64,000 bases of DNA from Candidatus Kaiserbacteria bacterium. Its GTDB lineage: Bacteria > Patescibacteriota > Minisyncoccia > Phycocordibacterales > UBA2100. The notes beneath the pieces were generated by a model, which saw only the letters and a program-made list of their open reading frames with translations, ran no database searches and was not told the origin of the DNA. Where the stretch lies: assembly GCA_016867375.1 (NCBI GenBank), contig VGJQ01000001.1:21394-85393 (forward strand), written 5' to 3'. Both the position numbers and the translations under genes were made by a program. Below, in pieces: positions 16,801 to 56,626 of this stretch (positions within the stretch are counted from its first letter, which is position 1; the number at the start of each line of letters is the position of its first letter).

Positions 16801-16918
16801 CTCGCGCGAGCGCGCCCTGCGATCAGAATTCATCCACGACATCGACCAGCGCCTCATCGTCCACTCCTCACGCGACGGTGGCGTAGAAGGGCAATCGGGA
16901 GAGGGAATTATTTGGTAA
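13841..16918 (+). CDS. uvrD: UvrD/PcrA-family ATP-dependent DNA helicase interrupted by an intein
   Basis: Motif I AGAGAGKTKTITHRIAH. Helicase motif VVGDIDQ / SIYTWRGA is split by a 366-aa insertion. The C-terminal motifs (TIHASKGLEFDAVFV, RLFYVAVTRARKRL) are intact. The extein alone is about 659 aa. Confidence 0.9.
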   Translation: MNAESRYLHGLNERQKEAVLHTEGPLLIIAGAGAGKTKTITHRIAHMIEQGVPARQILAVTFTNKAAGEMRERVKKLIPEGRGVPLVATFHSLGVRLLREFHEEAGLERGFSIWDRDDSMRVIKRALEKLNIETIPGRNVLSAISRAKGDGISREEYDRDANSFHERTVAQVWQIYDKALHEEGALDFDDLLGRTLMLLQNSPRVLELLRGRWHYITIDEYQDTNAAQYEIARLLSGERRNLCVVGDIDQCVAEGTLITMADGEKKPIERVKKGDLVLSNYGSGAMRPSHVHRIHRRSTRETVTITTKSGRRLTTTSDHVHFAGYRLGIVPQMYFTYLMYKHGVGYRLGVSQVYANGQRTPMVGFQQRCNHEHGDAVWIIGTHTASNDARVMEYTLSLQYQIPTLPFVARKGVSVGGYVHDQRVIDALFATIDTEKGAFRLLRDRGLSRDYPHHRAQSRDSNRRNVTITLCGDQRGKTPMHRISMTGNDDEGKHLLQSIGLSVRSVKNGSSSWRFESAHADYAALRERVMHISTVFPRLAIIENARLGGNKANPKDGNSLGFLPAASVLPGMALFDEVGGYDIITGVEKATQTRRVYDIDIEHTHNFIANGIITHNSIYTWRGADIEHLMNFETQFPGTKVILLEQNYRSTRTILTAANAVIAKNKRRKEKNLFTDNDTGEPIHTYAARNEMDESWFVAQTAVEMIQGGIRPDEIAILYRENFQSRALEEALLAFSVPYRVLGTKFFERKEVKDTLSYLRAALNPKSKVDLVRVAAVPPRGIGKVTLDKMLAPLEKPDTNGFTSIWDQFFLTGRVGDESSITGATLIKVTKFREQIAAIRKAIETLPASEAVRYTVEVSGMEKMYQEDKKEGIERLENIHELVNLAVRYDEELPPVGIEKLLEEAALQSDQDELEEPQAAVSLMTIHASKGLEFDAVFVTGLEQGLFPSLREDTRDPEEERRLFYVAVTRARKRLFLSHAGERMKYGSRERALRSEFIHDIDQRLIVHSSRDGGVEGQSGEGIIW
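14591..15688 (+). mobile_element. Intein (366 aa) in the UvrD helicase motif (VGDxDQ|S)
   Basis: Begins CVAEGTLITMADG (block A, Cys1). TTTSDHVHF (block B, TxxH). Ends IANGIITHN followed by Ser+1. The host motif is restored to VGDIDQSIYTWRGA on in-silico excision. No clear LAGLIDADG motif is seen in the central region. Confidence 0.8.
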
Positions 16919-16956
16919 GGGTTCGTCCACGAATAACGTACCCGTTATGTGTGAAC
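16916..16956 (+). repeat. REP-like TAAGGGYTCGTCC-hairpin element (copy 1; its TAA is the uvrD stop codon)
   Basis: taagggttcgtccacgaataacgtacccgttatgtgtgaac. This is a member of a 5-copy family. Confidence 0.7.
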
Positions 16957-17019
16957 TATGGCACATCGGCATAGTATTTTTGGAAACCAGGTTCCTTAAT
17001 GATAGTATGCCGGTACTTT

Positions 17020-17766
17020 ATGGCTTCACGCAAAGTACCGCTTGTACCCAATGAATATTTCCATGTCTACAATAGGGGTGTAGACGGTCGCTCTATTATT
17101 CAAGATAAAGAAGATCTTGGACGCCTGTTAAACAGTATGCGCGTTTTTAACCGCGTCGAACCGGTGGGAAGCCTTTATGCGTTTTCATTCCACGACCCTC
17201 AGTTAAGGAACCAGGTTCCTAAGTTGGAAGACAGTAAGCACCTTGTGTCTATCGTGTCTTTCAACATTCTCCCGAATCACATCCATTTCGTCCTGAAGCC
17301 ACTCGTTGAGAAAGGTGGGAGTGAGTATGTAAAACGTGTTATCGGAGGATTCACATTGTTCTTCAATGAAAAGTACGGGCGAACTGGGCCTCTTTTTCAA
17401 AGTCCGTTTAAAAGTACGCATATCCGCAGCACTCACCACTTGTTACACATGCAAACGTATGTCAATTTAAATGATTATATTCACGGACGAGGGCAATTTC
17501 CTGAATGGGTGGGTGCCAGCAGTTGGGGTATGTTCACCACTAAAACAATGAACGATATCTGCGACCCAATTGAGGTCGAAGCTATTCTTTCCCATTTTCC
17601 CAATCGTAGTGAATATCGAAAACGGGCCCTCGAAACTGCCGATGCAATATGGCAAGAGCGTATGGCAGACGAAATCGAGCAAACAACGCAGGGACGCGAT
17701 ATTGCGGACCAAGCCGCTCTGGAGAAGAATATTCTTCCCCAACTTAGGAACCAGGTTCCTAAGTGA
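17020..17766 (+). CDS. IS200-like / REP-associated tyrosine transposase (COG1943-type Y1 transposase)
   Basis: YFHVYNRG N-terminal motif, the HUH motif NHIHFVL, and a C-terminal Y-containing helix (YVNLNDYIHG). It is flanked by, and internally contains, the 21-nt palindrome ttaaggaaccaggttcctaag at about 16984, 17203 and 17743. Confidence 0.7.
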   Translation: MASRKVPLVPNEYFHVYNRGVDGRSIIQDKEDLGRLLNSMRVFNRVEPVGSLYAFSFHDPQLRNQVPKLEDSKHLVSIVSFNILPNHIHFVLKPLVEKGGSEYVKRVIGGFTLFFNEKYGRTGPLFQSPFKSTHIRSTHHLLHMQTYVNLNDYIHGRGQFPEWVGASSWGMFTTKTMNDICDPIEVEAILSHFPNRSEYRKRALETADAIWQERMADEIEQTTQGRDIADQAALEKNILPQLRNQVPK

Positions 17767-17771
17767 TTACT

Positions 17772-18674: not shown

Positions 18675-19016
18675 CTACTGCGAAGAGCCGTGCATGATGA
18701 TCGAGCTACCTGACCGCACATCAATCGGCACGATGGTATAGAGACAAGCAGTCGGAGCACCCGCAAGCCCCAGGAGCCACTGCCCAGCATGGCTCGGCGG
18801 GCCAAAAGCGTACGAGCGCGTCCCGCTTGTCCAGATATAGACCCCTGGCACCGGGGGGCCGAGGCGAACGTAGATTGTCCTGTTGTAACAACGATGCACT
18901 TCGGACGCCTGACCACCGAAGGGAAATGCATACACGAGAGAAGGAAGCATCGCACATACCACCAGCAAGAGTGTCATCAATGCGACCGGTGTGCGCCACG
19001 TAGCGATGAGGGTCAT
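18675..19016 (-). CDS. Hypothetical small secreted/membrane protein
   Basis: N-terminal signal-like hydrophobic segment. Lies opposite what is probably a non-coding 5' extension of the plus-strand ORF. Weak support. Confidence 0.3.
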   Translation of the reverse strand: MTLIATWRTPVALMTLLLVVCAMLPSLVYAFPFGGQASEVHRCYNRTIYVRLGPPVPGVYIWTSGTRSYAFGPPSHAGQWLLGLAGAPTACLYTIVPIDVRSGSSIIMHGSSQ

Positions 19017-19115
19017 ATGCGTATCCTATCACCCCTTTTAGACACGAAGCGAGTTATCCCCCACGGCACAAAAGTGACACACACCCTCTCCAGGACCCGG
19101 TGTATCATTATCCGC

Positions 19116-20030
19116 ATGAAGTATCCGTACTTTTTGGGTGTCGTCGGCATTATCGCATTACTCGCCATAGGGGGAGCAATCGTTGACACGCGCGTGCCCA
19201 TCGGCGCTGGCGAGAGTACGTATAGCGGGGGTACACCCATTTATTTTGACACTTCCTCCTATGCACCCTATCAGCCGTCGACGCAGAATCAGACCCCTGA
19301 TGACAGCACTCCGGCAATCCCCACCATGCGTACGTATGACTCGTTTTCATATACACCAGACCCAAGCAAGGGCTCTGCGACAAACATCCCGAGCACGATC
19401 ATCCATTCTGATTCAAGCTTTGATTTCAATGCATTCATGCAGAAGCTGTCTTCATCGGGTACATCGGCTTCACAGATCCCTGTAGGCACATCGATTAATA
19501 CTCCTATTATCCAAGAAGAATCGTATCCGTTCGTCCCCCCCGAGCTTTTTTCATCGCCTGACGCACCACCTGCGCGCTCCGCACTCCAACAAGAGCTCTA
19601 TACGTATGGCAACACAGCAGGCTCTTTCCTAAAGACATACGAACAGATGCATGCCAACGACGTCGCGGTGATGCAGCGCTTTTTTGACACCCGGACAAGC
19701 GCACCAAATACGACCGCGCTGCGCCAAGTCGCCAACGACTTTAAGGCGGTGGGCCTCAATATGAAGACCGTGCAGCAGGTCCCCGCACCAGCCGCGTCGA
19801 TCCATAAAAATCTCGCTGAGTCGTACATCGTCGTCGCAGATAAGATGATCGCCATGCTCTCTACCGCAAACGACGAAGACTTCATCCAGGCAGTCCTCAC
19901 ATACAATGCGGCCGTTGAAGAAAACCTCAAACACCTCGTCGCGCTCATCGACACTTTTGCCAACAACGGCGTGAAATTTGGACCGAGTGAATCCGGGAGT
20001 GTCTTTATGTTTTCAAGCGTCGGCTTGTAA
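19116..20030 (+). CDS. Hypothetical N-terminally membrane-anchored protein (304 aa from MKYPYF)
   Basis: One N-terminal transmembrane helix followed by a Ser/Thr/Pro-rich linker and a helical domain. The stop codon TAA is part of a REP-like element. The ORF-track start at 18789 gives an Arg/Cys/His-rich, non-protein-like extension. Confidence 0.55.
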   Translation: MKYPYFLGVVGIIALLAIGGAIVDTRVPIGAGESTYSGGTPIYFDTSSYAPYQPSTQNQTPDDSTPAIPTMRTYDSFSYTPDPSKGSATNIPSTIIHSDSSFDFNAFMQKLSSSGTSASQIPVGTSINTPIIQEESYPFVPPELFSSPDAPPARSALQQELYTYGNTAGSFLKTYEQMHANDVAVMQRFFDTRTSAPNTTALRQVANDFKAVGLNMKTVQQVPAPAASIHKNLAESYIVVADKMIAMLSTANDEDFIQAVLTYNAAVEENLKHLVALIDTFANNGVKFGPSESGSVFMFSSVGL

Positions 20031-20170: not shown

Positions 20171-20986
20171 GTGGAAAACGAACGCTTTGACACCGGCGGG
20201 TCTTGGCGCATTATCGCGAGCGCAGCGCTTTCGATAGCGGTCGTCATCGGGATTCTTGCGTGGCAGTTCCACACACGGGTCATACAAGCACGACGAGTAG
20301 GGGATGCTTCTGCGACGAGCACCTCTCTGGAAACCCCGCGCAACAGTGCACGAGAGCTCGCCGAAAAACTCGGGCTACCAGACCCGACCGCGACATCGTC
20401 CACACCGGAAGAAATCGCACAGATCGGATCCAATGCATTCGGACAGATAGCGACGTACTATGCGATCTTGGAACAGAACAACGCCTACACACCGGAGATC
20501 GGCGCACAGATCGCGGCGAGCATTGCACCGAGCATCCATGCACGCGTCCCGTACTCGATGTACGACGAAAAGTCGCTTTCGACACATGGCGACACGTCAT
20601 ACGCGGGCATGCGCGCCTATCGCACCGCCCTGCAGACGTCACTTGCCCCGCTCAAACTCAACAAGGAGTACGAGCTGCACCTGTACGGTGCATACATGGA
20701 GACGCGTGATGTGACATACCTGACCAAACTCACTGCTGCCGCGCAGCATTATCGTGAAGCAGCAGGCCTCACGGCGCGCATCACGGTACCCAAAGATGCA
20801 ACATCTATCCATATCGCGGTTTTAAACGCAATGCAAAAATTTGCATCCACACTCGACCTCATGGTCGCCAATATTTCCGACCCGATCACATCGCTCGCAC
20901 TCCTGAGCGCATATAGCAAAGCGGAAGACGATATGGTCAACGCATTCACCACGCTCGACGACTACTATGCCAGCAAACAACCATGA
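20171..20986 (+). CDS. Hypothetical N-terminally membrane-anchored protein, architecture like 19116..20030
   Basis: Single N-terminal transmembrane helix then a soluble helical domain. It is the first gene of a long co-oriented block. Confidence 0.55.
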   Translation: MENERFDTGGSWRIIASAALSIAVVIGILAWQFHTRVIQARRVGDASATSTSLETPRNSARELAEKLGLPDPTATSSTPEEIAQIGSNAFGQIATYYAILEQNNAYTPEIGAQIAASIAPSIHARVPYSMYDEKSLSTHGDTSYAGMRAYRTALQTSLAPLKLNKEYELHLYGAYMETRDVTYLTKLTAAAQHYREAAGLTARITVPKDATSIHIAVLNAMQKFASTLDLMVANISDPITSLALLSAYSKAEDDMVNAFTTLDDYYASKQP

Positions 20987-22719
20987 AAACTAGCACACGC
21001 ATATATACTCAACAAAAAAAGGGAGTGATCATCGCATTCGCTTGTTTGACGATTGCATATCTCACACTCCTCCCTGCTATAGGCCTCGCACAGGAACAGC
21101 AATCACTCCCGGCACAAATCACCTCCTGCAGCCAAAACGGCAACGTCCCTGTAGAATCAGGAAATTCCGTGGGTGTCTCGCAGGGAAGCGGCACATTTGT
21201 CCCGGTCGCGGATCAGGCCGTCATCACAAACACAAATCTCATGATTCAAAACACGAGCAGGATCATCAGAAACACCGGCATGCTCGTATACAAAGAATGC
21301 GTCTTGCGCCCGCTCGTCAACGCACAACGAAAAGCGGTCACCTCGATGGTCGTGCGCAACGGTATAAACGCATACAACACGCAGCGCAACGGCGGACCGC
21401 TCTTCGCACAGAATATTATCCAAGAGCGTTTGTACCTCGCGCTGGATCCGCAAATCCTGGTGACCCTTGCCAATGGTACCTTCGACGCACTCAATGACCT
21501 CTTTGAAGGCACTATCAAATCCGCCGTCGGCAACAACTACTACAAGGCGACTCGCGAAAAGGCGAGCAGCACACTCGCGTGTCCGTATCGGGGAAATCTC
21601 AATGCAGCACTCAATGGCAGCCCCCAAGGGTCGACGCGCGATGCTCTTTTGGCATTTAGAAATCCGGCGTGCGTCCCACATATGGCGGCAGAAATGGCAA
21701 ATCAGGTGGCGTTCGACTATATGGGCGCTGCCGAAGAGAGTCTCCTTACCAACGTCAATTGGGGGCAGGGAAACTATCCGCAGGTACAGCTCGACGACAA
21801 CGGCAACTACGTCTTCACGACAGACACGATCGTGACCGCTCCCGCCTCTGCAGTGAAAACGGTCCAAGAACAACTCCTCACGTCGGGCTTCCGCATGCAG
21901 GAAAACGCCAACAACGTCAATGAGATGGTCGATGTACTCTTCTCCGACGTGGGGTCACGGATGATGTCGAGCCCGCAAGGCATGGGTGGTCTCGTTATGC
22001 CCGGCACCGGAGGCAGCAGCGGGGGTTCGTATCTGGATCAGGTCGTATCTCGATCCGGCGGCCAACTCATACAGATCGGAGGCAACGCGGCGCTCCAAAT
22101 CCTCAACGCCGCACTGACAGTCGAGCGCGCATACAATCAGGCGGTGTCTGCTATTGCCGCAAATCTCATCCAGACCATCAACCAGCTGCGCGCCGTCGAA
22201 CGCCAGTGCTTTACATCTCTGACACAAAATGTGTGTGTCGCGGGTACGATCTCCCCAGATGGCACTTCGTGTACGGGGGTTTCCGGCAACAATCTCACCC
22301 GTATTGCCACATCGACCGCCTTTTCTCAAGCGGTCGTCACCAATCAGATCGCACCACTGGCATCGACCACGCAGGCCAACATCACAAAATCAAACAACGC
22401 CATAACCATCCTCAGTCAAATGATTTCGACTGTCACCAACAATCCGAATGCACAAGCGAGCGTGCTTGCACAATACAATCAGCTCGCCGCACAAGGCACC
22501 TTCCATACCCAATCCGATGTCACATCTGCACAAGCGCAGCTGCAGACCGTCGCTGCCGCCACGAGCAATCTCGTACAAAACACCATCAACACCTGGGCAG
22601 GGACCGACAGCCAAGGAGAATCGACTATTCCATGGGATCACAGCATCTCTCCTGGAGTAGGGTGGTGTAATTATCAGAGCCAGGGGACACTCACCTCATG
22701 GGATCAGCGGTGGCGTTAA
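20983..22719 (+). CDS. Large secreted protein (signal peptide, 578 aa), Asn/Gln/Thr-rich C-terminal half
   Basis: N-terminal signal peptide ending AIGLAQEQ. No catalytic motif recognised. Overlaps the upstream gene by 4 nt. Confidence 0.55.
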   Translation: MKTSTRIYTQQKKGVIIAFACLTIAYLTLLPAIGLAQEQQSLPAQITSCSQNGNVPVESGNSVGVSQGSGTFVPVADQAVITNTNLMIQNTSRIIRNTGMLVYKECVLRPLVNAQRKAVTSMVVRNGINAYNTQRNGGPLFAQNIIQERLYLALDPQILVTLANGTFDALNDLFEGTIKSAVGNNYYKATREKASSTLACPYRGNLNAALNGSPQGSTRDALLAFRNPACVPHMAAEMANQVAFDYMGAAEESLLTNVNWGQGNYPQVQLDDNGNYVFTTDTIVTAPASAVKTVQEQLLTSGFRMQENANNVNEMVDVLFSDVGSRMMSSPQGMGGLVMPGTGGSSGGSYLDQVVSRSGGQLIQIGGNAALQILNAALTVERAYNQAVSAIAANLIQTINQLRAVERQCFTSLTQNVCVAGTISPDGTSCTGVSGNNLTRIATSTAFSQAVVTNQIAPLASTTQANITKSNNAITILSQMISTVTNNPNAQASVLAQYNQLAAQGTFHTQSDVTSAQAQLQTVAAATSNLVQNTINTWAGTDSQGESTIPWDHSISPGVGWCNYQSQGTLTSWDQRWR

Positions 22720-22728
22720 AATAGTGCT

Positions 22729-25362
22729 ATGAGTCGCTTTCACATACCACAGGTTCTCACACACAGCGTCTTGTATGTATTTTTTGCCTGCGCGATACTC
22801 TTCCTTCCCCTCCAGGTGTCATTACCCGCGCCAACCACACAAACCACTTCAATCGGTTACTCCGTGACGCTGAGTGCCGCACACGCCCAGACAGGCCCGT
22901 CCGCATCGACCAAAACGAAAGATCTCCCCACCTCATGCGGCGGCTGGGGATGGCTCCAAGTAGGAGTGGTCACCTGCGCCACACGATGGACCATATCCGT
23001 CCTCGCCACGCTCGTGATCCAGGCCGGTGTCCTTATCCTCGGCCTCGCAAGCGGACTATTTGGCCTCTTGATTGATCGCACTATCATCGGCTTTGGCGCC
23101 GCTGATGGTATTCTCACCAAAGGGGTGCAGGATGGCATCACTATCGCGTGGACCGCTTTGCGCAATATCTCCAACATCCTCATCATCGGCTTTTTCACCT
23201 TTATCGCCATCAACATCATTCTCGGCAGCGCCGAATTCGGTCAAAAGAAGCTCGTCGCCCGCGTCCTCATCGTCGCGATCCTCATCAATTTCAGCCTCTT
23301 CTTTACGAAAGTCATTATTGATTTTTCCAACTACACTGCCACACAGTTCTATCGCCAGGCGACCATACTGCAGACGAGACCAAACACCGGCGGCACCCCT
23401 GAAGGTATCGGCGACCAGTTTATGAATGCCCTCGGCGTGACCTCGTTTGCCCAGACCCAAGGGGAGATCTCCAAGCTCGGGGAGACACAAAATGGCATCG
23501 CATCCATGCTACTCATCTCGATCATGTCGTTTGTCATTCTGCTTGCCACAGCTATGGTGCTTTTCTACGGGTCATTCATCCTCGCTTCTCGCGCGATCCT
23601 CCTCGTCTTTCTCATGATTACCGCTGCTCTTGCGTTTACCACCTGGCTCATCCCGACATTTGCAAGTAAAGGATGGGACACGTGGAGAAAGGCGCTTATC
23701 GAAAGTGCGGTGCTCGCACCCATGCTCATGCTCTTCCTGTGGGCGACGCTCGCAATCGCACGCGCCCTCAAAGCGGCCAACAACGGCGGCACACTCGGCG
23801 GGGTGCTGGTAAATCCTGCCAACGCAGGTGATCTTGGTGCCTTGTTCTCATATCTCGTCATTCTCGGGTTGTTGTTTGCGACCTTTAAGGTGACGTATAG
23901 CTTCTCGCGAGACATCAGCGGATTCAATTGGGCCTCCGTCGCACCCGCAATCGGCGTCGCCGGCTTCGCGCGCGCTGGGGCATTTGCCGGTAAAAATATG
24001 AGTGCAATCGCCAGCCGCGGACTCAACGCCGCCGCGAATCGCATCACCTCGAACTCAAAAATGGCGACCCTCGGCAAGGGCGCCTTGTATGGCGCATCGG
24101 CACGTGCCGCTACCCTCAGTCTGCGCAGCCAAAACCTCATGAATACGGGTGTCGGTGCGCTCGTCGCGAGCCAAGTAAAGAAAACCGGCCTGACACAGCC
24201 AGTCTTGGCCGGAGCAAATCGCCCGCCCATCTTCAATGCAGCCCAACAAAGCGCCACAAATTCAATCCTGCAGGCTATTGCCGCAAAGAAGCCTCCCGCA
24301 CCACCAAGCATCACCCCGCCGCCAGTACAGAAGGCGCTGCCAAAGCCGCCGACTACTCCTCCCACACCCACAAAACCTCCGACAGCACCGGTTGGCGCCG
24401 CCTTACCAAAACCTCCTACAGCTCCGTCTACTGGAGCAGTGCAGCCTACCCAAGCTAAACCCGCAGCAGCTGGCCCGCAAGCGCTACCAAAACCGGCGGC
24501 GGCGAGTGCTCCCGGCACCACTCCACCTACGGGCGTACAGCGCGGCGGTGCCACTGATGCAGTGGGCAGCCAGATCGCAGAGGCACTGAAGGAAGGGGAG
24601 AAGAATAAGGCCGAGAGTAATAAGGCGGCAGCGGCAGCGAGTGACCAGAAGCAAAAACAGCTCACCGAAGAAATCGGCAGGGCGGTTGCGGGCGCTACAG
24701 CCGAAAGTGCACGAGAAACAGCGGAGGCAGTGAGAGCGGCAGGTACGGAGACACAAGCGGCTGTTGGAAAAATCGCAGAACAAGCAAGTACATCCCAAAA
24801 GGAAGTCGGGCAGAAACTAGCAGAAGAATTCAAAGGTGCTGCTGCTGACGTGAAAGGTGCCGCAGCCTCCGACGCCGCGACATTTACCAAGGGCCTGGAG
24901 ACCTTCCAAAAGACACGAAAAGAGGAGCTCGACCAAGCAACGGCTTCGGGAGCATGGGAGCGCGCCGCTTCTTCCCGCAAAGCGGAGGCGCGCGCTGTAG
25001 CTGAAAATATCCGTTCGGCCGCCCAACAAACGACGATACAAGCCTCGGCACGTTTTGCCCCCACACCCTCACATCCGCTCACTATTCCATCGGGGGGTAC
25101 TGCTGACACACAAGCGGCACAATCCCTATCCATGCGGCCCCAAAATATGCCCGGGAGTGCAACCGCGCATGTCGGCCAACCATCCATGAATATAAACAAT
25201 CTCTCATACGCGGACATCATCCGCGCGGGTACGCGCAGGGGCGGCGACAAACCCGGCACCGTCCCCGTCATTCGTCTGAGCGAACAACTCAAAGCCAAAC
25301 ACATGCCGCAGCCGTCCAATCCTGCCAATGACAACAGGCCGCCACATTCTCTCACCGCATAA
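22729..25362 (+). CDS. VirB6/TrbL-like polytopic membrane protein with a Pro-rich linker and a long Ala-rich helical C-terminal extension
   Basis: About 500 aa with many transmembrane helices. Then a PPAPPSITPPPVQKALPKPPTTPPTPTKPPTAP linker and an AxxxA-rich coiled C-terminus. Its position upstream of VirB3-like and VirB4 genes matches Gram-positive-type T4SS organisation. Confidence 0.5.
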   Translation: MSRFHIPQVLTHSVLYVFFACAILFLPLQVSLPAPTTQTTSIGYSVTLSAAHAQTGPSASTKTKDLPTSCGGWGWLQVGVVTCATRWTISVLATLVIQAGVLILGLASGLFGLLIDRTIIGFGAADGILTKGVQDGITIAWTALRNISNILIIGFFTFIAINIILGSAEFGQKKLVARVLIVAILINFSLFFTKVIIDFSNYTATQFYRQATILQTRPNTGGTPEGIGDQFMNALGVTSFAQTQGEISKLGETQNGIASMLLISIMSFVILLATAMVLFYGSFILASRAILLVFLMITAALAFTTWLIPTFASKGWDTWRKALIESAVLAPMLMLFLWATLAIARALKAANNGGTLGGVLVNPANAGDLGALFSYLVILGLLFATFKVTYSFSRDISGFNWASVAPAIGVAGFARAGAFAGKNMSAIASRGLNAAANRITSNSKMATLGKGALYGASARAATLSLRSQNLMNTGVGALVASQVKKTGLTQPVLAGANRPPIFNAAQQSATNSILQAIAAKKPPAPPSITPPPVQKALPKPPTTPPTPTKPPTAPVGAALPKPPTAPSTGAVQPTQAKPAAAGPQALPKPAAASAPGTTPPTGVQRGGATDAVGSQIAEALKEGEKNKAESNKAAAAASDQKQKQLTEEIGRAVAGATAESARETAEAVRAAGTETQAAVGKIAEQASTSQKEVGQKLAEEFKGAAADVKGAAASDAATFTKGLETFQKTRKEELDQATASGAWERAASSRKAEARAVAENIRSAAQQTTIQASARFAPTPSHPLTIPSGGTADTQAAQSLSMRPQNMPGSATAHVGQPSMNINNLSYADIIRAGTRRGGDKPGTVPVIRLSEQLKAKHMPQPSNPANDNRPPHSLTA

Positions 25363-25371
25363 CCACATCAT

Positions 25372-25908
25372 ATGGACACATCACACACTATAGACTTCGA
25401 AAAGGTAATGCATGAGCGGTTTGCACAGCTCCCTCCATCTATACAGGCCGCCATCACATCGGCCGATGTCGAGACGCACCTACGTGAGCTCGCCAAGACC
25501 CACCAACTTCATCTCGACCAGTGGAATCTGCTCGAAAACGAGGTCATGCTCACACTCTTGGGCCTCCAACAAATGTCCCAACTCAAGGATAATATTATGA
25601 AAGAGGTTGGTGTCTCCGATCAGGTGGCAACAGAGCTCGCCAACGACATCACACAAAATGTCTTCCAGCCGATCCGTGACGAGCTCGAACAACTACTCGA
25701 ACACCCCGCATCACAACCGGACACACCACCATCAGCCTCTGGCGCGGCCCAAGCATCAACACCAGCTTCCACTACACCCACGCCGACCCCTCCCACGCCA
25801 GACATAAAGGTGGCACGTGCCGCCACACCATCTACCTATCTGTCGCAGACTCCGAGTCATGAACGTAAAACCATAGACGGTGACCCTTATCGCGAACAAA
25901 TTAATTAA
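25372..25908 (+). CDS. Hypothetical protein with Thr/Pro-rich C-terminus
   Basis: ORF within the co-oriented block. No motif recognised. Confidence 0.45.
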   Translation: MDTSHTIDFEKVMHERFAQLPPSIQAAITSADVETHLRELAKTHQLHLDQWNLLENEVMLTLLGLQQMSQLKDNIMKEVGVSDQVATELANDITQNVFQPIRDELEQLLEHPASQPDTPPSASGAAQASTPASTTPTPTPPTPDIKVARAATPSTYLSQTPSHERKTIDGDPYREQIN

Positions 25909-26026
25909 ATCCTCTACGTATGTAGATTTGTGTGGGGGGATAGGGCACAAGCACAGTACCTGGACTGTAGTAGAATATAGATATGGTTGAAAGGAAGAGG
26001 GGTCATTCCACCAGCCTCATTTATCT

Positions 26027-26530
26027 ATGCAATTCCAGGTTCCCCAATTCATCGAGGTCGAGGACAAGATCTTTGGTCCGTTCACGTTCAGACAGTTCAT
26101 CTATCTCGTGGGTGGTGCTGGTGCGTGCTACCTTGTATGGCGCGTCCTGCCGGTATTTGTATCGTTGCCACTGATCATCTTTATCGCGCCGTTTTCCGTG
26201 GCGCTTGCCTTCTTTCAAATGAACGGCCGTCCGTTTATTCTCGCGCTCGAAAGCGGCTTCTTTTATCTCATACACTCAAAGTTGTACCTATGGAACAACA
26301 CGAAAAAACCGCTTGTCGCACGCGAAAAGACAAAAACAGCCGCAGCGACCAAGAACGGTCTCTACATACCTCGGCTTTCCGACAGCAAACTTCACGAGCT
26401 CGCCTGGAGCCTTGATATTAGAGAGCGCATCGCGAGCGGCACGACAGTGGAGGCCGAGCGGCAGCCAGCTCCCGTCGACGTACTCGCCCCCGTCCGCACT
26501 GCCCGCGACGCCATGACTAAAGCATCATAA
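26027..26530 (+). CDS. VirB3/PrgI-like small membrane protein (two TM helices)
   Basis: 167 aa. Two adjacent hydrophobic helices near the N-terminus (FRQFIYLVGGAGACYLVWRVLPVFVSLPLIIFIAPFSVALAFF). Sits immediately before the VirB4 gene, as VirB3/PrgI genes do. Confidence 0.45.
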   Translation: MQFQVPQFIEVEDKIFGPFTFRQFIYLVGGAGACYLVWRVLPVFVSLPLIIFIAPFSVALAFFQMNGRPFILALESGFFYLIHSKLYLWNNTKKPLVAREKTKTAAATKNGLYIPRLSDSKLHELAWSLDIRERIASGTTVEAERQPAPVDVLAPVRTARDAMTKAS

Positions 26531-26534
26531 ATCT

Positions 26535-27191
26535 ATGGAAGAAACCAACGCGCGCACATCCACCCGTTCGACACAAGACTTCGTCCCTATTTCGGAAGTC
26601 CGCGACGGCATTGTCGTTTTGAAAAACGGGGAATTGCGCGCAATACTCCTTGCATCATCCATCAACTTTGCCCTGAAATCCGAAGACGAGCAGACGGCAT
26701 TCATTATCCAATTCCAAAACTTCCTCAACTCACTCGATTTTTCCTGCCAGATCTTCGTACAATCGCGTATGCTCGACATCCGCCCCTACATCACCACCCT
26801 CGAAGCGCAGTACAAACAACAGCTCGACGACCTCATGCGCATACAAATCCGCGAATACATCGAATTCATCAAGAGCTTCACCGAAGCCGCCAACATTATG
26901 ACCAAAAATTTCTTCGTCGTCGTGCCGTACACACCGACAATCATCAAGAAAGCTACCGGCCCTACCTCGTACCTCCCCTCATTCGGCGGCAAAAAAGACA
27001 GCGGCACAGTCGAGACGTCGTTTGAAGAGCACGTCTCCCAGCTCGAGCAGCGCATCTCGATCGTCCAACAGGGCCTGGTACGCACCGGAGTACGCACCGT
27101 CCAGCTCGGCACCGAGGAAGCTATCGAACTTCTCTACAAGATGTTCAATCCCGGCGAAGAAGGAAAACCTATGCCCGTACCTACCGACTGA
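26535..27191 (+). CDS. Hypothetical cytoplasmic protein immediately upstream of virB4
   Basis: 218 aa with no transmembrane helix. 4-nt gap from the VirB3-like gene. Function unknown. Confidence 0.45.
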   Translation: MEETNARTSTRSTQDFVPISEVRDGIVVLKNGELRAILLASSINFALKSEDEQTAFIIQFQNFLNSLDFSCQIFVQSRMLDIRPYITTLEAQYKQQLDDLMRIQIREYIEFIKSFTEAANIMTKNFFVVVPYTPTIIKKATGPTSYLPSFGGKKDSGTVETSFEEHVSQLEQRISIVQQGLVRTGVRTVQLGTEEAIELLYKMFNPGEEGKPMPVPTD

Positions 27192-27258
27192 TGCCAGGGT
27201 ATAATGACACACAAACGCATATGTCCTCACCACAGCACGACTACCTCATACACACACT

Positions 27259-30200
27259 ATGGCACTCCTAGACCTCCTACACCTCGGCGACAAGAACAAG
27301 AAAGATACGGAGGGCCCGGGGATAATCCCGGTATTGCCCGCGGAGATCTACCAGACGGGCGTGCTCGACCTGCAAGACGTCATCGCACCGCATGCACTGC
27401 AGATCAATTCGCGCGAGCTCGATCTCGGCGAGAAGATCGCGCGTACCTTTTTTGTGATCTCATATCCGCGCTTCCTTACGACAGGGTGGTTTGCGCCGAT
27501 CATCAACATGGACAAGGTGATCGACATTTCCATCTTCGTCCACCCGATGGATACCAATGAGATGCTACGCAAATTCCAAAAAAAGGTCGCCGAGGTGCAG
27601 AGCCAGATATCCACACGCGAAGAGAAGGGAATGGTGCGCGATCCGATGCTCGACACCGCTTACCAAGACCTCGAACAGCTGCGCGACAGCCTCCAGCAAG
27701 CGCAGGAGCGCATTTTCGATGTCGGCCTGTACCTGACGATCTACGGCAACACACGCGAGGAGATCGACAAGGCCGAGGCAGCGGTACGCTCGATCCTCGA
27801 AAGCCGCCTCGTCTACATCCGCCCCGCACTCTTCCAACAAGAACAGGGGTTCCGATCTGTCTTGCCCTTATGCACTGATTTACTTGATGTACACACCAAG
27901 CTCAATTCGGCCCCGCTCTCGTCGATCTTTCCCTTCATCTCGTTTGACCTCACGTCAGACCGCGGCATCCTCTATGGCATCAACCGCCACAATTCATCAC
28001 TGATCCTCTTCGACCGCTTTAGTTTGGAGAACTATAACTCGGTCACTTTTGCAAAGTCGGGCGCAGGCAAAAGTCTTCGCGGCAACGAGTCGGTACTCAT
28101 ACGCCGCAATGGTGTAATACATAGAGAAAGAATCGGTTCGGTCGTTGAGCGACTTATCAAAAAGCATGGCGCCACAAAAATCGATGAAGAGCTCGAGGGT
28201 GTCATTGACCCTGGTTTTGAAGTATTCAGTTTCGACAAGAATATGCGGGCAGGGTGGAGTATGGTTTCTGTCGCCGCACGCAAAGAGGCCCCGGATATCT
28301 ACTATACATTCAAAACAAAAAGTGGCCGGGAAGTAACCACAACCGCCGATCATAATATGCTCGTGTTGCGCGACTGCAAGGTGATCGCCGCAAAAAGTGA
28401 AGATGTACGCGAAGGGGAGTATATCCCTTTACCGCGACAGGTGCATGCGACAAGCGGCGGCTCACATCACGAGCTAACGAAAGATTTTGCTTCACTATTA
28501 GGTTGGATATCGGCCGAGGGAGCATTCACTGATCGCTCAATCGTCATCAGCAATACAGAACAAGAAGCCTTGGATCAGATTGCGACACTCTGTGCCAATC
28601 TACACTTGAATCATACGCGAAACGCGCGATGGATTGCCGTGTATGGTAAAGCATTGCGCGTATACTTGCACTCGATCGAGGCGGATGGTTTGTCGGGAAG
28701 AAAACGCGTTCCTGCGCCCGTCTTTGGCGCGTCGCGCGAAATAGTTGCCGCGTATTTGCGTGCGTATTTCGAAGGCGATGGAGGGGTCGAAGATCACGAA
28801 GTAACCGTTCTTTCAAAATCAAAAGAGCTCATTTCCGGCATATCATATCTTTTGTATTACTTTGGTATCATCTCACGCATCCAAAAACGACACAAACGAT
28901 ACGCGGCGACAGGCGGTTACCGCACGTTCTGGCAATTACAGATTTCAGGTCAGGATAATATCAGAAAATTCCAGGAGTATGTCGGTTTTGTTTCGACGCG
29001 CAAACAGTCGGCGCTCGCCCCTATTGCCGCGAAAGCGGGTAATACCAACGTTGACATTGTTCCTGGGTTGCAACCGCTCGCGCAAGAACTCGCGTCGCTT
29101 TTCGACTCGCAGCTCTCCGACATCGCCGACTTTTCCGCGCTCAAACAGGGGCGCAACCTCTCTCCACAACACCTTGGAAGGTTCGTATCGACGATGGAGG
29201 AACGTGTCCAACGCTTCAAAGACCTCTATCCATTTATGCAAAAGCTGCAAGACTTGCCTACTGTAGGCGCGATCATCAAAAAAGCCGACGAAGATCGGGA
29301 ACTGAATCGCGGACTTATCGAGGCTATGAGCAGTTCATGGTTCACCATCAAACAAGGAATGGCCCCGCGCGCCAAAAACGCATTAAAAATATTCGAGACG
29401 GCGGGAATGGATGCACCAAAGACAGTGGATGAATTAAAAACGATGCTCAACGAAGGTATCGCGAATCTCCGCGTGCCGGCGAACGGTTTTGACGGCGGTT
29501 ATCTGGCGCGGACATTAGGCGGTATGCGAGACAATGCATCATATGATTTGCTGCACGCCGCCGCCCAATTCATCGCGGGAGAGTACCACCGCATATTGCA
29601 AAACCTGAATCGCGTTGAGGAAATCATCACCACACTCAAAACGCTCGCCGAGGCGGACCTTTTTTGGGATCCGATTGTATCCATCACTAAGAAAGAGAAT
29701 ATAGGAGACAAATACGTGTATGATCTTACTGTTGATGACGAAGTGTTCCTGGCCGGGCACGGCGGCATGTTCGTGCACAATTCGTATACGACCAAACTGG
29801 AGATATTGCGCTCCCTCATGTTCGACACCGAAGTGATCGTGATCGACCCGGAGCGCGAATATGAATACCTCGCAGAGACGGTCGGCGGGCGCTACTTCAA
29901 CATCTCACTCTCCTCCGAACATCACATCAATCCCTTCGACCTGCCGATACCGCGCGAAGATGAAAATCCATCAGACGTGCTGCGCAACAACACCATCGCA
30001 CTCGTCGGACTCTTCCGCATCATGCTCGGCGGACTCACTCCCGAGGAAGATGCAATCATCGATAAAGCCATCACCGAGACATACGCGCTCAAAGACATCA
30101 GCGCTGATGCCAATTTCGCCGCCGTCGAACCGCCGCTTCTCTCAGACTTCGAGCTCGTACTCTCGGGCATGGAAGGATCAGAATCGCTCGTACAGCGACT

Positions 30201-30930
30201 CGCCAAATACACCAAGGGCACCTGGTCGGGCTTCATGAATCGCCCCACCAACGTCGATATGAATAAGAAACTCGTCGTCTTCTCGGTGCGCGACATGGAA
30301 GACGATCTCAAGCCCGCCGCCATGTACATCATCACACACCACATCTGGAACACCGTGCGTAAAGAGCTGCGCAAGCGCCTCCTCGTCATCGACGAGGCAT
30401 GGTGGATGATGCGCTCTGAAGATACTGCATCATTTCTCTTCTCGATCGCAAAGCGCGGACGCAAATACTACCTCGGCATCTCGACCATCACCCAAGACGT
30501 CTCCGACTTCCTCAACTCTCCGTACGGCATTCCCATGATCACCAACTCATCGATTCAGCTCCTCCTGCGCCAATCTCCGACATCGGTCGATCTCGTCCAG
30601 AGCACCTTCAAACTCTCCGATGAGGAAAAATATCTCTTGCTCGAATCCGACGTGGGGGAGGGGATTTTCTTCGCCGGACTCAAGCACGTCGCACTCAAAG
30701 TGATTGCATCGTACACCGAAGACCAGATCATCACCTCTGACCCATCACAAATCCTCGCCATCAAGAAAGCGAAGCAAAATCTCGCCGCAGCAGGTGAGGG
30801 CGGCCCCGCCGCTGAAGCAGCTATCGCCGAAGTGTCCGCCCAAACGATGGTAGAACATGCTGCGCCCGGTGCCGACACCGCGGGCGTGGGTGCAAGCTCT
30901 CTCAACAGCAATGCGCTTAAGAGCGTATGA
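27259..30930 (+). CDS. virB4: VirB4-family type IV secretion ATPase (Gram-positive TraE/PrgJ-like) interrupted by an intein in the Walker A P-loop
   Basis: The N-terminal region (RTFFVISYPRFLTTGWFAPII...ISIFVHP) matches VirB4/TraE proteins. Walker A FAKSGAGK|...|SYTT is split by a 570-aa insertion. Walker B LLVIDEAWWM and C-terminal motifs are intact. The extein is about 653 aa. Confidence 0.85.
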   Translation: MALLDLLHLGDKNKKDTEGPGIIPVLPAEIYQTGVLDLQDVIAPHALQINSRELDLGEKIARTFFVISYPRFLTTGWFAPIINMDKVIDISIFVHPMDTNEMLRKFQKKVAEVQSQISTREEKGMVRDPMLDTAYQDLEQLRDSLQQAQERIFDVGLYLTIYGNTREEIDKAEAAVRSILESRLVYIRPALFQQEQGFRSVLPLCTDLLDVHTKLNSAPLSSIFPFISFDLTSDRGILYGINRHNSSLILFDRFSLENYNSVTFAKSGAGKSLRGNESVLIRRNGVIHRERIGSVVERLIKKHGATKIDEELEGVIDPGFEVFSFDKNMRAGWSMVSVAARKEAPDIYYTFKTKSGREVTTTADHNMLVLRDCKVIAAKSEDVREGEYIPLPRQVHATSGGSHHELTKDFASLLGWISAEGAFTDRSIVISNTEQEALDQIATLCANLHLNHTRNARWIAVYGKALRVYLHSIEADGLSGRKRVPAPVFGASREIVAAYLRAYFEGDGGVEDHEVTVLSKSKELISGISYLLYYFGIISRIQKRHKRYAATGGYRTFWQLQISGQDNIRKFQEYVGFVSTRKQSALAPIAAKAGNTNVDIVPGLQPLAQELASLFDSQLSDIADFSALKQGRNLSPQHLGRFVSTMEERVQRFKDLYPFMQKLQDLPTVGAIIKKADEDRELNRGLIEAMSSSWFTIKQGMAPRAKNALKIFETAGMDAPKTVDELKTMLNEGIANLRVPANGFDGGYLARTLGGMRDNASYDLLHAAAQFIAGEYHRILQNLNRVEEIITTLKTLAEADLFWDPIVSITKKENIGDKYVYDLTVDDEVFLAGHGGMFVHNSYTTKLEILRSLMFDTEVIVIDPEREYEYLAETVGGRYFNISLSSEHHINPFDLPIPREDENPSDVLRNNTIALVGLFRIMLGGLTPEEDAIIDKAITETYALKDISADANFAAVEPPLLSDFELVLSGMEGSESLVQRLAKYTKGTWSGFMNRPTNVDMNKKLVVFSVRDMEDDLKPAAMYIITHHIWNTVRKELRKRLLVIDEAWWMMRSEDTASFLFSIAKRGRKYYLGISTITQDVSDFLNSPYGIPMITNSSIQLLLRQSPTSVDLVQSTFKLSDEEKYLLLESDVGEGIFFAGLKHVALKVIASYTEDQIITSDPSQILAIKKAKQNLAAAGEGGPAAEAAIAEVSAQTMVEHAAPGADTAGVGASSLNSNALKSV
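28072..29781 (+). mobile_element. Intein (570 aa) with a LAGLIDADG homing-endonuclease domain, inserted in the VirB4 P-loop
   Basis: Starts SLRGNESVLIRRNG (Ser1). TTTADHNMLV (block B). LAGLIDADG-like motifs LLGWISAEGAF and LRAYFEGDGGV. Ends GMFVHN followed by Ser+1. Removal restores GAGKSYTT. Confidence 0.8.
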
Positions 30931-31280: not shown

Positions 31281-31288
31281 TATACAAT

Positions 31289-32344: not shown

Positions 32345-32350
32345 CACCGT

Positions 32351-35507: not shown

Positions 35508-35548
35508 TAAGGGCTCGTCCGCAAATAATACACCTGTTATGCGCAGAC
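35508..35548 (+). repeat. REP-like TAAGGGCTCGTCC-hairpin element (copy 3, degenerate stem)
   Basis: taagggctcgtccgcaaataatacacctgttatgcgcagac. Confidence 0.55.
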
Positions 35549-35745
35549 TACGCGTTAGTCATCGGAAAAGTGAAAGGCAGCGCGATTCCTTTCAGGAATC
35601 GCGCCACCCCTACAACCCTACATGGCACAAGTCTGACTTGTGCCATTACCACTTTTAATCACAGACTCCGCTGTTGAGCCACTTGTGTGGCATGCCATGG
35701 AGCGCGTCGTGGATGAAAGTGCAGTCGTCGATGTAGTATGGCTAA

Positions 35746-36289: not shown

Positions 36290-36345
36290 GCGGCCACTAT
36301 ACCGTATCTATACCCAAACTCAAGTTATTGGGGAGGGGTTATTGG

Positions 36346-36461
36346 GGAGGGGTGTGGCCGTATGGTGTTCTGGAACCATACCTACATTTTCACGCTTGCT
36401 GTTTGAGCTCCTGCTCTACATATGTGCCGGATATCCGTTCGCTGCGCGATGTTCCAGAACA
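36346..36461 (-). repeat. Long-stem hairpin element, family 2, copy C (21-bp stem ending ggaac/gttcc)
   Basis: The arms ggccgtatggtgttctggaac and gttccagaacaccatacggcc pair. The inner sequence is the reverse complement of the conserved core of copy D. Confidence 0.7.
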
Positions 36462-39595: not shown

Positions 39596-39700
39596 CTCAT
39601 TAAGGGCTTGTCCGTCAATGGAAAATTCCGTCTTTGCGAGGCCTTTGGCCGAAGCAATCCAGAGTGCTACCACTCACCCTAGGCTGCTTCGTTTTGCACC
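39596..39700 (+). repeat. About 100-nt repeat, copy 1 (degenerate stem)
   Basis: tcaatggaaaattccgtctttgcgaggcctttggccgaagcaatccagagtgctaccactcaccctaggctgcttcg. It is about 90 percent identical to 56461-56570. Confidence 0.6.
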
Positions 39701-39787
39701 ACAAGGGCACTTCCATTTTTCTAAGCCTTGGCTAAGAAAAATTGGTCGCTCGCAAAGACACTACCGGTAGGTTGGTTGGAAATGGTA

Positions 39788-42591: not shown

Positions 42592-43143
42592 ATGTATGAT
42601 GCGTATATGATCGAATACGTCCACCAAGTAAATGCTCGTGCGTGGGGGATGCGGATCTCGGTACGGGTGGATGGGGAAGTGGTGGTAACGACGCCGCGAT
42701 TTGTGACCAAGAGGATGATTGATTCGTTTGTGGCCACACACACTGACTGGATATCGCGGCATGTCGCGCGAGCGCGAGCACGCACGGTGATGAGGATACC
42801 GCGCAAGGATGTCGCGACGCTCAAAAAGCACGCGCGAGAGCTCGCAGAAAGCCGCTGCGCGCACTTTGCAAGACAGTACGGCCTGACATACAAAAAGATA
42901 TCTATCCGCGCGCAGAAATCGCGATGGGGGAGCTGCTCGACCGCGGGCAATCTCAGTTTCAATTACAAGATCGCGCTTTTGCCGCCACATCTCGCCGACT
43001 ACATCGTCGTGCACGAGATATGCCACCTCGTACACATGAATCATTCAAAAAAGTTTTGGGACCTCGTGGCACAGACCATGCCGGATCACAAGAAATATCG
43101 CACGGAACTGCGCCGGACACATATAGTAAGGGCCCGTTCATAA
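42592..43143 (+). CDS. YgjP/DUF45-family (SprT-like) zinc metallohydrolase
   Basis: HEICHLVHMNH (HExxH) motif near the C-terminus. 183 aa. Confidence 0.7.
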   Translation: MYDAYMIEYVHQVNARAWGMRISVRVDGEVVVTTPRFVTKRMIDSFVATHTDWISRHVARARARTVMRIPRKDVATLKKHARELAESRCAHFARQYGLTYKKISIRAQKSRWGSCSTAGNLSFNYKIALLPPHLADYIVVHEICHLVHMNHSKKFWDLVAQTMPDHKKYRTELRRTHIVRARS

Positions 43144-43302
43144 ATAACTAGACCCCGATACCATGTATGCATGACTTCCATGGAGAGTGGAATTACACGA
43201 TCGGGCCGCACCGAAGGATACAATTATTTACGGAAGAGCCCTAATTAGTTAGTCAAAAGCCAGGCTTTCTACAGTTGTGCAAGCCTGGCTTGCACAACAG
43301 GC

Positions 43303-50564: not shown

Positions 50565-50565
50565 T

Positions 50566-54840: not shown

Positions 54841-54845
54841 TCACT

Positions 54846-56432
54846 ATGAATATGCAAAACAGTATTTCGATGACGATGCTCGTCGTCTCTGTGATGTCGT
54901 TGGTTACCTTTATTGTGGTTGTGCTGCCGCGCACTGCTGTGGCGATGAATGCAGCAGAATCAGCAAATGCGATGTGTAATCCAGTCATTCCGCCTTGTGG
55001 TTGTCAGCAAATATTAGACCCAATAACAGGGCAATGCACAGGAGGTGCGAACATGAATCAATGTCCCTGCCAGGCGACCGTGAGCGGTATTACTTTTTCT
55101 GGCATATGTATCGCACCCAAAAAATGCGAAACCAAATCCGCCGGCGGTGGCGGTGTCGATAGTATGCTCAGTCAGCTCGGCCAGATGCTCAGTCAAGCGA
55201 TGCAGGCCCTTCAGGGAGGAGGGGGTGGAGGAGGAGGGGGTGGTCAACAGCCTCAGATGCCCCCAATGGGTGGCATGGGAGGGACCGGGATGGGCGGCTC
55301 GCAAGGATGCACGAGTTACTACCAGGTATCCACTCCGTCGAGCGATCCGTGTGCGTACTACGTCCCATCGTCCATTGGTAGTGATCTCAACGGTGCGCTC
55401 GGTAGTACCGCAGGCAACGACCTCCTCAATGCACTAAACGGCGGTACAAATACCAATATACCGAGCATTCCTGGGACGGGAACGGGTATCAACAATAATA
55501 ATACGAACGGTACGGTCAACCCCCCACAAAATCCCAACAATAGTGGATCGGGCGGTATTAATAATGGGACAGGACCCCAGATTGGTACCACACAAGGGAA
55601 GACCAGCGCACCCAATTCGATCATAGGTCTCATCTCAAATCCAAACAACCTGAGGATCGCGAGTACTACGGAAACGGTAATAGTAAATCCTGATGGGACG
55701 ACATCCACCACCACGACGTATTCGTTTTTTGGCCTCGAAATTACACTTCCGAGTAATAAGACCTCAGCGGGTGATCTCACTGCATTTATGACGATAGCCA
55801 ATATCATCAGTGGCAAAGGGGCATCCTCACAGGGAGGGGATTTGTTTTTGGGCGGCAATGGTGCCACCATATATTCCTCCAATTTTGATTCAAAAACGAA
55901 TACAGCCATCTCAGGGTTCATTGGTGCCAATTCTTCTGGTGGATCGGTCGGCTTGGCTGCATGGTTGTGTCGGACACGGCCGTGGGCCAACAACATCATC
56001 TCTCGCATCATACCGTCGTCGTTCTTCGATTCGCTCTGCACGCGTCGCGGATATGCGGTAGGTGCTCAGCCGGTAAGGACGGTGACTCCAGGCCTGACAC
56101 AGACACGATTGCCTGCCGTTAAAAAGACGGCAACGCCTGTAAAAAACACGACGACAACCGCCACATCCACTGTCCCTACTATACCGCCGAGGGTCCAGGT
56201 CTGGGCGGTGCCAGCGACGGTTTCGATTGGTTCCCGCACCTCGATCTTTTGGAGTGCGCGTGGCGTGGAAAACTGTCTCGTGACCAGTCCCGATGGGAGT
56301 TTCCGCCAAACGACGCTTTCGGGAGGCGCATCGACCGTCCCGCTCACGACGTCGACTACGTATACCATCTCCTGCCTAACGCCCGATGGTACGCCGGTGA
56401 CCGACTACTTCACGGTGCGGATGGCGATATAA
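54846..56432 (+). CDS. Secreted low-complexity (Gly/Asn/Thr-rich) protein with a folded C-terminal domain
   Basis: Signal/transmembrane segment at the N-terminus. Poly-Gly tract. Cys-rich segment. C-terminal beta-rich region. Confidence 0.5.
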   Translation: MNMQNSISMTMLVVSVMSLVTFIVVVLPRTAVAMNAAESANAMCNPVIPPCGCQQILDPITGQCTGGANMNQCPCQATVSGITFSGICIAPKKCETKSAGGGGVDSMLSQLGQMLSQAMQALQGGGGGGGGGGQQPQMPPMGGMGGTGMGGSQGCTSYYQVSTPSSDPCAYYVPSSIGSDLNGALGSTAGNDLLNALNGGTNTNIPSIPGTGTGINNNNTNGTVNPPQNPNNSGSGGINNGTGPQIGTTQGKTSAPNSIIGLISNPNNLRIASTTETVIVNPDGTTSTTTTYSFFGLEITLPSNKTSAGDLTAFMTIANIISGKGASSQGGDLFLGGNGATIYSSNFDSKTNTAISGFIGANSSGGSVGLAAWLCRTRPWANNIISRIIPSSFFDSLCTRRGYAVGAQPVRTVTPGLTQTRLPAVKKTATPVKNTTTTATSTVPTIPPRVQVWAVPATVSIGSRTSIFWSARGVENCLVTSPDGSFRQTTLSGGASTVPLTTSTTYTISCLTPDGTPVTDYFTVRMAI

Positions 56433-56460
56433 AGGAAATCATCTTTTTATACCATCTCTC

Positions 56461-56570
56461 ACATTAAGCGTCCATCAATGGGAAATTTCGTCTTTGCCGT
56501 CTTTGCGAGGCCTTTGGCCGAAGCAATCCAGAGTTCTACCACTCACCCCTGGATTGCTTCGCTTCACTCA
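56461..56570 (+). repeat. About 100-nt repeat, copy 2 (intact 13-bp stem cgaagcaatccag/ctggattgcttcg)
   Basis: About 90 percent identical to 39596-39700 over the core. It also carries an internal ggcctttggcc mini-hairpin. Confidence 0.6.
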
Positions 56571-56585
56571 CAAAGACACCATTGG

Positions 56586-56626
56586 TAAGGGCTCGTCCAC
56601 AAATCACGTACTCGTTATTTGTGGAC
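56586..56626 (+). repeat. REP-like TAAGGGCTCGTCC-hairpin element (copy 5)
   Basis: taagggctcgtccacaaatcacgtactcgttatttgtggac. Confidence 0.65.

Follow-up and report, generated by a model that had tools for sequence, protein, structure and literature searches.

Hairpin repeats in a Candidatus Kaiserbacteria contig are very probably TAA-targeting miniature elements of the ISAzo13 type

The 64,000-nucleotide stretch of Candidatus Kaiserbacteria contig VGJQ01000001.1 analyzed here (assembly GCA_016867375.1, positions 21,394 to 85,393 of the forward strand), hereafter called the window, carries a family of short repeats that form hairpins, mostly lie at gene ends and in some cases supply the stop codon of the preceding gene. 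An original prediction, made from the sequence alone, recognized these dispersed repeats and considered them to be related to repetitive extragenic palindromic (REP) sequences, possibly mobilized by an adjoining gene that resembles REP-associated tyrosine transposases (RAYTs). Our results uphold the existence and the distribution of the repeats and lead to a different identity for them: they are very probably miniature inverted-repeat transposable elements (MITEs), namely non-coding derivatives of insertion sequences (IS) of the ISAzo13 family, which target TAA. We favor this reading because the ends of the elements match those of ISAzo13-family IS, their flanking TAA trinucleotides are in direct orientation and ISAzo13, as well as its eukaryotic relative Zator, is reported to make target duplications of 3 bp (PMC10045372, PMC5718144).

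The family is recognizable by its head, TAAGGGCTCGTCC, which with up to two mismatches occurs nine times along the window, compared with 1.29 times on average and at most 4 in shuffled sequences; all the copy counts of the hairpin family refer to these 64 kb of a single contig. The five copies reported originally (at 16916, 20028, 35508, 36769 and 56586) are found at those positions, a partial copy on the reverse strand is confirmed at 58484-58513, and the elements 39601-39724, 43127-43244 and 56465-56588 are new (table 1). The head is followed by a stem of 12-14 bp with a loop of 4 nt, in agreement with the predicted stem of 14 bp, and the RNA folding z-scores are strong in the intact copies. 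Among the compensatory changes that had been claimed for this stem, the one between element 20028 (ACACAT/ATGTGT) and element 36769 (ACAAAT/ATTTGT) is real, whereas the acgaat/atgtgt pairing of element 16916 is uncompensated, with two mismatches and one wobble. A second hairpin is present in elements 20028 and 36769, as predicted.

The anatomy of the elements is that of a transposable unit. The same trinucleotide bounds, in direct orientation, all six elements with two definable ends, which have TAA on both sides; elements 56465 and 56586 abut and have one TAA in common. In types A and C the ends are imperfect inverted repeats of GGGCYCGTYCRYAAATAAC, those of element 43127 being GGGCCCGTTCATAAATAA and GGGCTCTTCCGTAAATAA. 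When read on the opposite strand, the right ends of both complete type A copies (GGACCCGTTCATAAAAAG and GATCCCGTTCATTAACAA) prove to be diverged versions of the left end (GGGCTCGTCCACAAATAA). Hairpin 1 is formed by the left repeat paired with an internal inverted copy of itself, while hairpin 2 is formed by an internal copy paired with the right repeat; the folding of the terminal repeats on internal inverted copies thus produces the two hairpins of type A. This combination of small size, imperfectly inverted ends and a 3-bp flank in direct orientation is the layout of a MITE. A strict search, which required TAA flanks and inverted ends in agreement at 11 or more of 14 positions, did not recover the family, owing to the imperfection of its inverted repeats. 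Inverted-repeat ends combined with a direct 3-bp duplication characterize cut-and-paste elements with DDE transposases and not the single-strand transposition catalyzed by HUH/Y1 enzymes. A likeness can be seen with the Correia elements of Neisseria and similar bacterial MITEs, which are also short and non-coding, have inverted-repeat ends and a short target duplication made of A and T only, lie in intergenic regions near gene ends and can form hairpins in transcripts; Correia elements differ in having another parent family, a TA instead of a 3-bp duplication and one long hairpin rather than two.

The relationship with ISAzo13 emerged from a scan of JGI metagenomes with the degenerate pattern TWAGGGCYCKTYCRYAAATAA, which was built solely from the ends of the window elements and retrieved at least 114 loci. 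Among the matches listed, 46 loci have a gene for an ISAzo13-family DDE transposase directly beside the matched end (tblastn, 44-100% identical). Two inverted end matches lying 1.36 kb apart surround an ORF (open reading frame) of 409-412 aa in L104, L127 and L188; this ORF matches Pfam PF07592 (DDE_Tnp_ISAZ013) with E 1.6e-142 and NCBIfam transpos_ISAzo13 with 577 bits, compared with a cut-off of 200. The flanks of these full IS are TTA on both sides in L104 and L188, and TTA and TAA in L127. When compared with the consensus of 28 distinct ends adjoining ISAzo13 transposase genes, again among the matches listed, the left ends of types A and C agree at 15-19 of 20 positions and the right ends at 15-16 of 20, while fewer than 1 in 10,000 of the 20-mers in the window match this consensus as well. 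Hence the window elements have in common with the ISAzo13 family the terminal GGGCYCGTYCRYAAATAAC, at 15-19 of 20 positions, the inverted-repeat ends and the 3-bp flanking duplication of TWA (W being A or T; PMC10045372). They differ from full IS in being non-coding, with 24-121 nt between the flanking TAA copies and no ORF of their own, in the lack of a transposase gene of this kind within the window, and in right ends that are more diverged. A scan of viral contigs gave one match only. Five metagenome loci with GC content of 41-49% (L105, L121, L128, L171 and L184) share this ISAzo13-type head, to which another conserved body, TAAGGGCTCGTTCATAAATAACTTGGCATAATCTGTTTTC..., is attached; no transposase lies beside them, and they probably represent a further miniature family.

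Table 1. Repeat elements of the window and loci of homologues of the Y1-like gene. Positions of homologues are those of their own loci, and their percentages are identities to the Y1-like gene of the window; z is the RNA folding z-score; end match is the number of positions, out of 20, that agree with the IS-end consensus.
Feature	Position	Strand	Flanks	z	End match	Remarks
Type A, degenerate	16916..16966	+		-1.2	left 15/20	Head TAAGGGTTCGTCC (one mismatch), decayed hairpin 1; TAA (16916-16918) is the uvrD stop codon; right boundary uncertain, next TAA (16997-16999) overlaps the ATG of the Y1-like gene
Type A, complete, 89 nt including both TAA	20028..20116	+	TAA/TAA	-6.3	left 16/20, right 15/20	Left inverted repeat and hairpin 1, then hairpin 2 bearing the right inverted repeat; left TAA (20028-20030) is the stop codon of ORF 18789-20030
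Type A, degenerate	35508..35560	+		-2.6	15/20	Between rnpA and yidC, antisense to both; right boundary uncertain
Type A, complete, 94 nt including both TAA	36769..36862	+	TAA/TAA	-9.8	left 17/20, right 15/20	In the rpmH-dnaA spacer; its end and the downstream dnaA start codon are 25 nt apart; a perfect DnaA box (36763-36771) overlaps the left TAA
Type B, 124 nt	39601..39724	+	TAA/TAA		left 12/20, right 2/20	Related head TAAGGGCTTGTCC, different body; no inverted-repeat match at right end; 52-nt core in common with 56465
Type C, 118 nt	43127..43244	.	TAA/TAA		left 19/20, right 16/20	Classical MITE, inverted repeats of ~18-20 nt; a YgjP-like ORF runs 15 nt into it
Type B, 124 nt	56465..56588	+	TAA/TAA			4-nt deletion in head; right TAA is the left TAA of the next element
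Type A	56586..56640	+		-5.5	16/20	Intact hairpin 1 (56595-56626); sequence past hairpin 1 unlike other copies; right end not defined
Mini element	58484..58513	-	TAA/TAA (minus strand)			24-nt core GGGCTCGTCC...GGACC between the two TAA; outer TAA is the DoxX stop codon (minus strand, 58513-58511); convergent ORF 58232-58501 ends inside
Homologue, L003, 58%	5274-6052					GGAAACC-A-GGTTTCC at three sites, changes compensated
Homologue, L004, 31%	9841-10735					CCCGTACCCC-T-GGGGTACGGG at 5', internal and 3' sites
Homologue, L206, 33%	1307-2099					TGCAGAAGC-CTT-GCTTCTGCA at 5', internal and 3' sites
Homologue, L205, 33%	2929-3706					TTGTTAGACACCGGGGTTCTAACA at 5' (twice) and 3' sites

The same two-hairpin plan is found in other bacteria of the candidate phyla radiation (CPR). 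Among the metagenome loci listed there are about 20 distinct copies (23 matches) of an element of ~80-105 nt, with the consensus TAA-GGGCTCGTYCGTAAATAAC-loop-GTTATTTACGRWTACGGCCCTTTGTGCCGCATC-loop-GGATGCGGCC-TAA; within the same matches, the flanks agree in 15 of the 20 copies with a definable right end (14 with TAA and one with TTA), and in four of 20 a long ORF, open for 120 codons or more, terminates at the left TAA, stop codons being supplied in this way in the window too. The host contigs that could be named (n = 7) are all from CPR bacteria, and exact protein matches place MITE-bearing contigs in Gottesman-, Lloyd- and Roizmanbacteria; a Staskawiczbacteria contig has a match to the end pattern too. 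The elements on CPR contigs (such as L111, L125, L134, L150, L193 and L200) resemble those of the window in the head, the two-hairpin plan and the TAA flanks, and differ in hairpin 2, which reads GCCGCATC.../...GATGCGGC instead of CCCGTTCAT.../...ATGAACGGG, as well as in the pairing of the entire head, whereas in the window the outer portion of hairpin 1 is decayed. L150 and L200, which are two loci of one Lloydbacteria genome, have a hairpin 1 nearly identical to that of the window. An alignment of 25 copies of hairpin 1 from several CPR lineages shows strong covariation: none of 500 shuffles reaches the observed score, and 86% of the cells are paired compared with 33-42% in controls with slid pairings. 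Three pairs are changed on both sides in 7-10 sequences each, namely those of columns 12-42 (CG in 12, UA in 10), 14-39 (GC in 16, AU in 9) and 15-38 (UA in 18, CG in 7). Hairpin 2 of the metagenome elements covaries too.

We considered whether the repeats could be REP- or REPIN-like sequences spread by the adjacent Y1 (RAYT-like) HUH transposase, which would recognize the hairpin and its 5' head on single-stranded DNA. Their layout, in which an imperfect palindrome comes after a conserved 5' head, does resemble that of REP sequences, as do their short length, extragenic position, frequent location at the 3' end of genes and the vicinity of a single-copy Y1 gene, since copy 16916 lies directly 5' of ORF 16999-17766. 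The product of this ORF, which is 100% identical to 'hypothetical protein FJY93_00190', retains the HUH motif (HIH) and the conserved tyrosine and is accordingly a Y1 enzyme. It is not a curated RAYT, for its matches are weak: 27.4 bits with NCBIfam REP_Tyr_transpos (E 2.5e-6), far under the cut-off of 80, and 16.7 bits with Pfam Y1_Tnp (E 0.008), for which the cut-off is 23. Moreover, REPINs almost always flank the RAYT gene to which they belong (PMC5581495), whereas this gene has beside it one degenerate copy of the hairpin family, on the 5' side only. Its flanks and interior bear instead a different palindrome, ACTTAGGAACC-A-GGTTCCTAAGT, with one copy directly preceding the ATG, one within the coding sequence and one covering the last codons (16980-17764); these three are its only copies in the 64 kb.

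Homologues of the Y1-like gene have private palindromes as well, the sequence of which differs from locus to locus (table 1). The three-site layout is present in four of the five homologue loci, while the fifth has the 5' and 3' copies only; the internal copy is in frame and the 3' copy lies at the stop codon or directly past it. Between the window and L003 the arms of the palindrome have changed on both sides, together with the encoded peptide (LRNQVPK to LGNQVSK). On sequence grounds, these palindromes look like the end hairpins of IS200-type elements plus an unexplained internal copy. No copy of the head of the hairpin family was found on the fetched loci L003-L007. REP sequences, in addition, have neither inverted-repeat ends nor target duplication, and the inverted ends and direct 3-bp flanks seen here are not products of HUH transposition. 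We therefore reject mobilization by the Y1-like gene, because its own hairpins differ, RAYT genes almost always have flanking REPINs and the orientation of the elements remains constant across the replication origin; a REP identity is very improbable overall. Even less credible is the possibility that the elements are miniature IS200/IS605-type elements (palindrome-associated transposable elements, PATEs), with left and right end hairpins and single-strand insertion 3' of TAA. The two-hairpin copies, with a hairpin near each end and a position directly 3' of TAA, indeed recall the geometry of IS608, and there is a Y1 gene nearby. Yet each end is an inverted repeat of the other and also of the ends of ISAzo13 IS, and TAA occurs on either side. 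Terminal hairpins are missing from element 43127, which has only inverted repeats of ~18-20 nt. In the 46 loci mentioned above, genes for DDE transposases are bounded by the same ends, and no strand switch occurs at the origin.

A distinct possibility is that the elements are structural RNA or DNA elements selected by the host, such as terminators independent of T-tracts, stabilizers of mRNA 3' ends or insulators, which are no longer mobile and for which transposon ancestry would be incidental. This interpretation, which is compatible with an origin from MITEs, fits the fact that seven of the eight strand-assignable elements lie directly downstream of a gene in sense orientation; it also fits the compensatory changes of hairpin 1 across 25 copies from several CPR lineages, the covariation of hairpin 2 and the lack of a transposase on any CPR DNA sampled. 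However, that covariation may reflect in part the evolution of each genome's inverted repeat together with its internal copy, several copies are decaying (z-scores of -1.2 to -2.6) and copy 35508, within the rnpA-yidC unit, is antisense to it. None of 80 related loci contains the family, which therefore does not represent a conserved host function at fixed sites. Intrinsic, that is Rho-independent, termination was rejected as the main explanation, since no T-run follows either hairpin and none of the elements was called when 16-21 kb and 35-44 kb were scanned for terminators. Altogether, a host-selected identity appears distinctly unlikely. Slightly less so, while still rather doubtful, is the proposal that these are orphan MITEs of CPR bacteria, either kept for a host function (for instance, formation of transcript 3' ends where a genome has few canonical terminators) or mobilized by a transposase from outside the CPR cell. 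This proposal derives from the compensated two-hairpin plan across Kaiser-, Lloyd-, Gottesman- and Roizmanbacteria; no ISAzo13 transposase was seen on the ~1.5 Mb of CPR DNA sampled. An outside source of transposase may be the host bacterium or a mobile element.

The interpretation of the repeats as ISAzo13-type MITEs must be weighed against several observations. The count is limited to 64 of the ~92 kb of one contig, and tblastn detected no ISAzo13 transposase in the window, in 80 related loci (1.4 Mb) or on the CPR contigs that bear MITEs. The two right ends of type B have no inverted-repeat match (2/20 and 6/20), three copies of type A lack a definable right end, and the copies differ from each other by 15-37%, a divergence that does not support recent activity. 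The closest relatives, with DnaA at most 85% identical, are too distant for the alignment of empty sites. Finally, the head end is beside TAA rather than TTA in all nine window elements and in 19 of the 21 distinct metagenome MITE copies listed, a bias that simple insertion at TWA in random orientation does not predict; in full IS copies the corresponding bias is ~2:1 only. Were the orphan proposal true, this bias would reflect selection or a directional step of insertion.

If the elements are ISAzo13-type MITEs, their mobilization in this genome can be envisaged from sequence comparison as follows. An ISAzo13-family DDE transposase acting in trans would bind both ends of the element, excise it and insert it at a TWA site, after which repair of the staggered cut would duplicate 3 bp. 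TAA stop codons may be among the few TAA sites at which insertion does little harm. An insertion at such a codon leaves one TAA in frame and consequently the element appears to supply the stop codon, a situation that had been predicted for uvrD and for ORF 18789-20030 and is found for both, as well as for the DoxX gene on the minus strand.

Other searches with the elements add little to their distribution. No match to the exact pattern of head plus stem was found in species-representative genomes or JGI metagenomes, collections that do not include the source genome; a protein search with the six-frame translation of the elements gave no match on other contigs; an Rfam search returned a tRNA and no other match; a homologue search with an ISAzo13 transposase returned 8000 hits, which carry no organism names; and extension by 4.6 kb past one end of the window met a tRNA gene and no repeat. 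Logan contigs of the same organism (L001, L002 and L008) stop in the hairpin loops of elements 20028, 36769 and 56586 and in the 52-nt core of type B. These breaks were discarded as a sign of many copies since they sit in hairpin loops, and palindromes alone could break de Bruijn assembly.

The relatives examined comprise 80 dnaA loci of Kaiserbacteria and other Paceibacterota (1.4 Mb in total), the DnaA of which is 68-85% identical to that of the window. Gene order is kept in these loci and no copy of the family was found in them. The spacers that contain elements are long by comparison: the yidC-rnpA spacer measures 324 nt in the window and ~15-120 nt in most relatives, while the rpmH-dnaA spacer measures 598 nt in the window and ~170-420 nt in most relatives. 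It would seem, therefore, that small hairpin MITEs lengthen otherwise compact spacers, including the region upstream of dnaA.

This region belongs to a conserved cluster at ~34-42 kb, with jag, yidC, rnpA and rpmH on the minus strand, dnaA and dnaN on the plus strand and a class A penicillin-binding protein gene on the minus strand; the cumulative GC skew has its minimum at ~36-38 kb. One copy had been placed within oriC, and element 36769 does lie in the rpmH-dnaA spacer. Upstream of dnaA there are two perfect DnaA boxes, at 36694-36702 and 36763-36771, the second of which ends in the target TAA of this MITE; both boxes are now separated from the dnaA start by the element. Much of the same spacer is occupied by an imperfect palindrome of ~340 nt (36342-36690), single-copy within the window, which folds as DNA with -102.6 kcal/mol (z -9.5) and whose 26-nt center is also present in the same spacer of relative L019.

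Additional features of the window can be mentioned. UvrD (13841-16918) contains an intein, with Hint and intein-splicing domains that separate the two halves of the helicase, and another intein, with a LAGLIDADG endonuclease domain, is present in the VirB4/TraC-like ATPase (27259-30930). The latter is part of a plus-strand cluster (20171-34050) with type IV secretion-like genes (PrgI, VirB4/TraC-like ATPase and a type IV secretion system pilin) and many ORFs without Pfam match, oriented head-on to the direction of replication deduced from GC skew. A 40-nt palindrome, CACTTGTTTATAGTTCGCGGCCGCGAACTATAAACAAGTG, occurs twice (5511-5550 and 6228-6267, 93% alike, the first copy being perfect) and flanks a PaaX-like regulator gene (5586-6206, minus strand). 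There is also a direct repeat of 57 nt, 81% identical, at 8181-8237 (directly past recJ) and 9489-9545 (at the start of a ComEC-like ORF).

In the literature library searched we found no paper on MITEs of the ISAzo13 family or on MITEs in CPR bacteria. The present analysis replaces an incorrect REP/RAYT label with a testable one, that of TAA-targeting ISAzo13-type MITEs. In CPR genomes, the mobile DNA of which is little described, such elements would account for hairpin repeats on stop codons, for longer spacers and for the ends of short-read contigs. Their recognition has practical value for annotation and for strain typing by insertion polymorphism, while its conceptual value is modest unless the elements prove to be orphan or domesticated MITEs.

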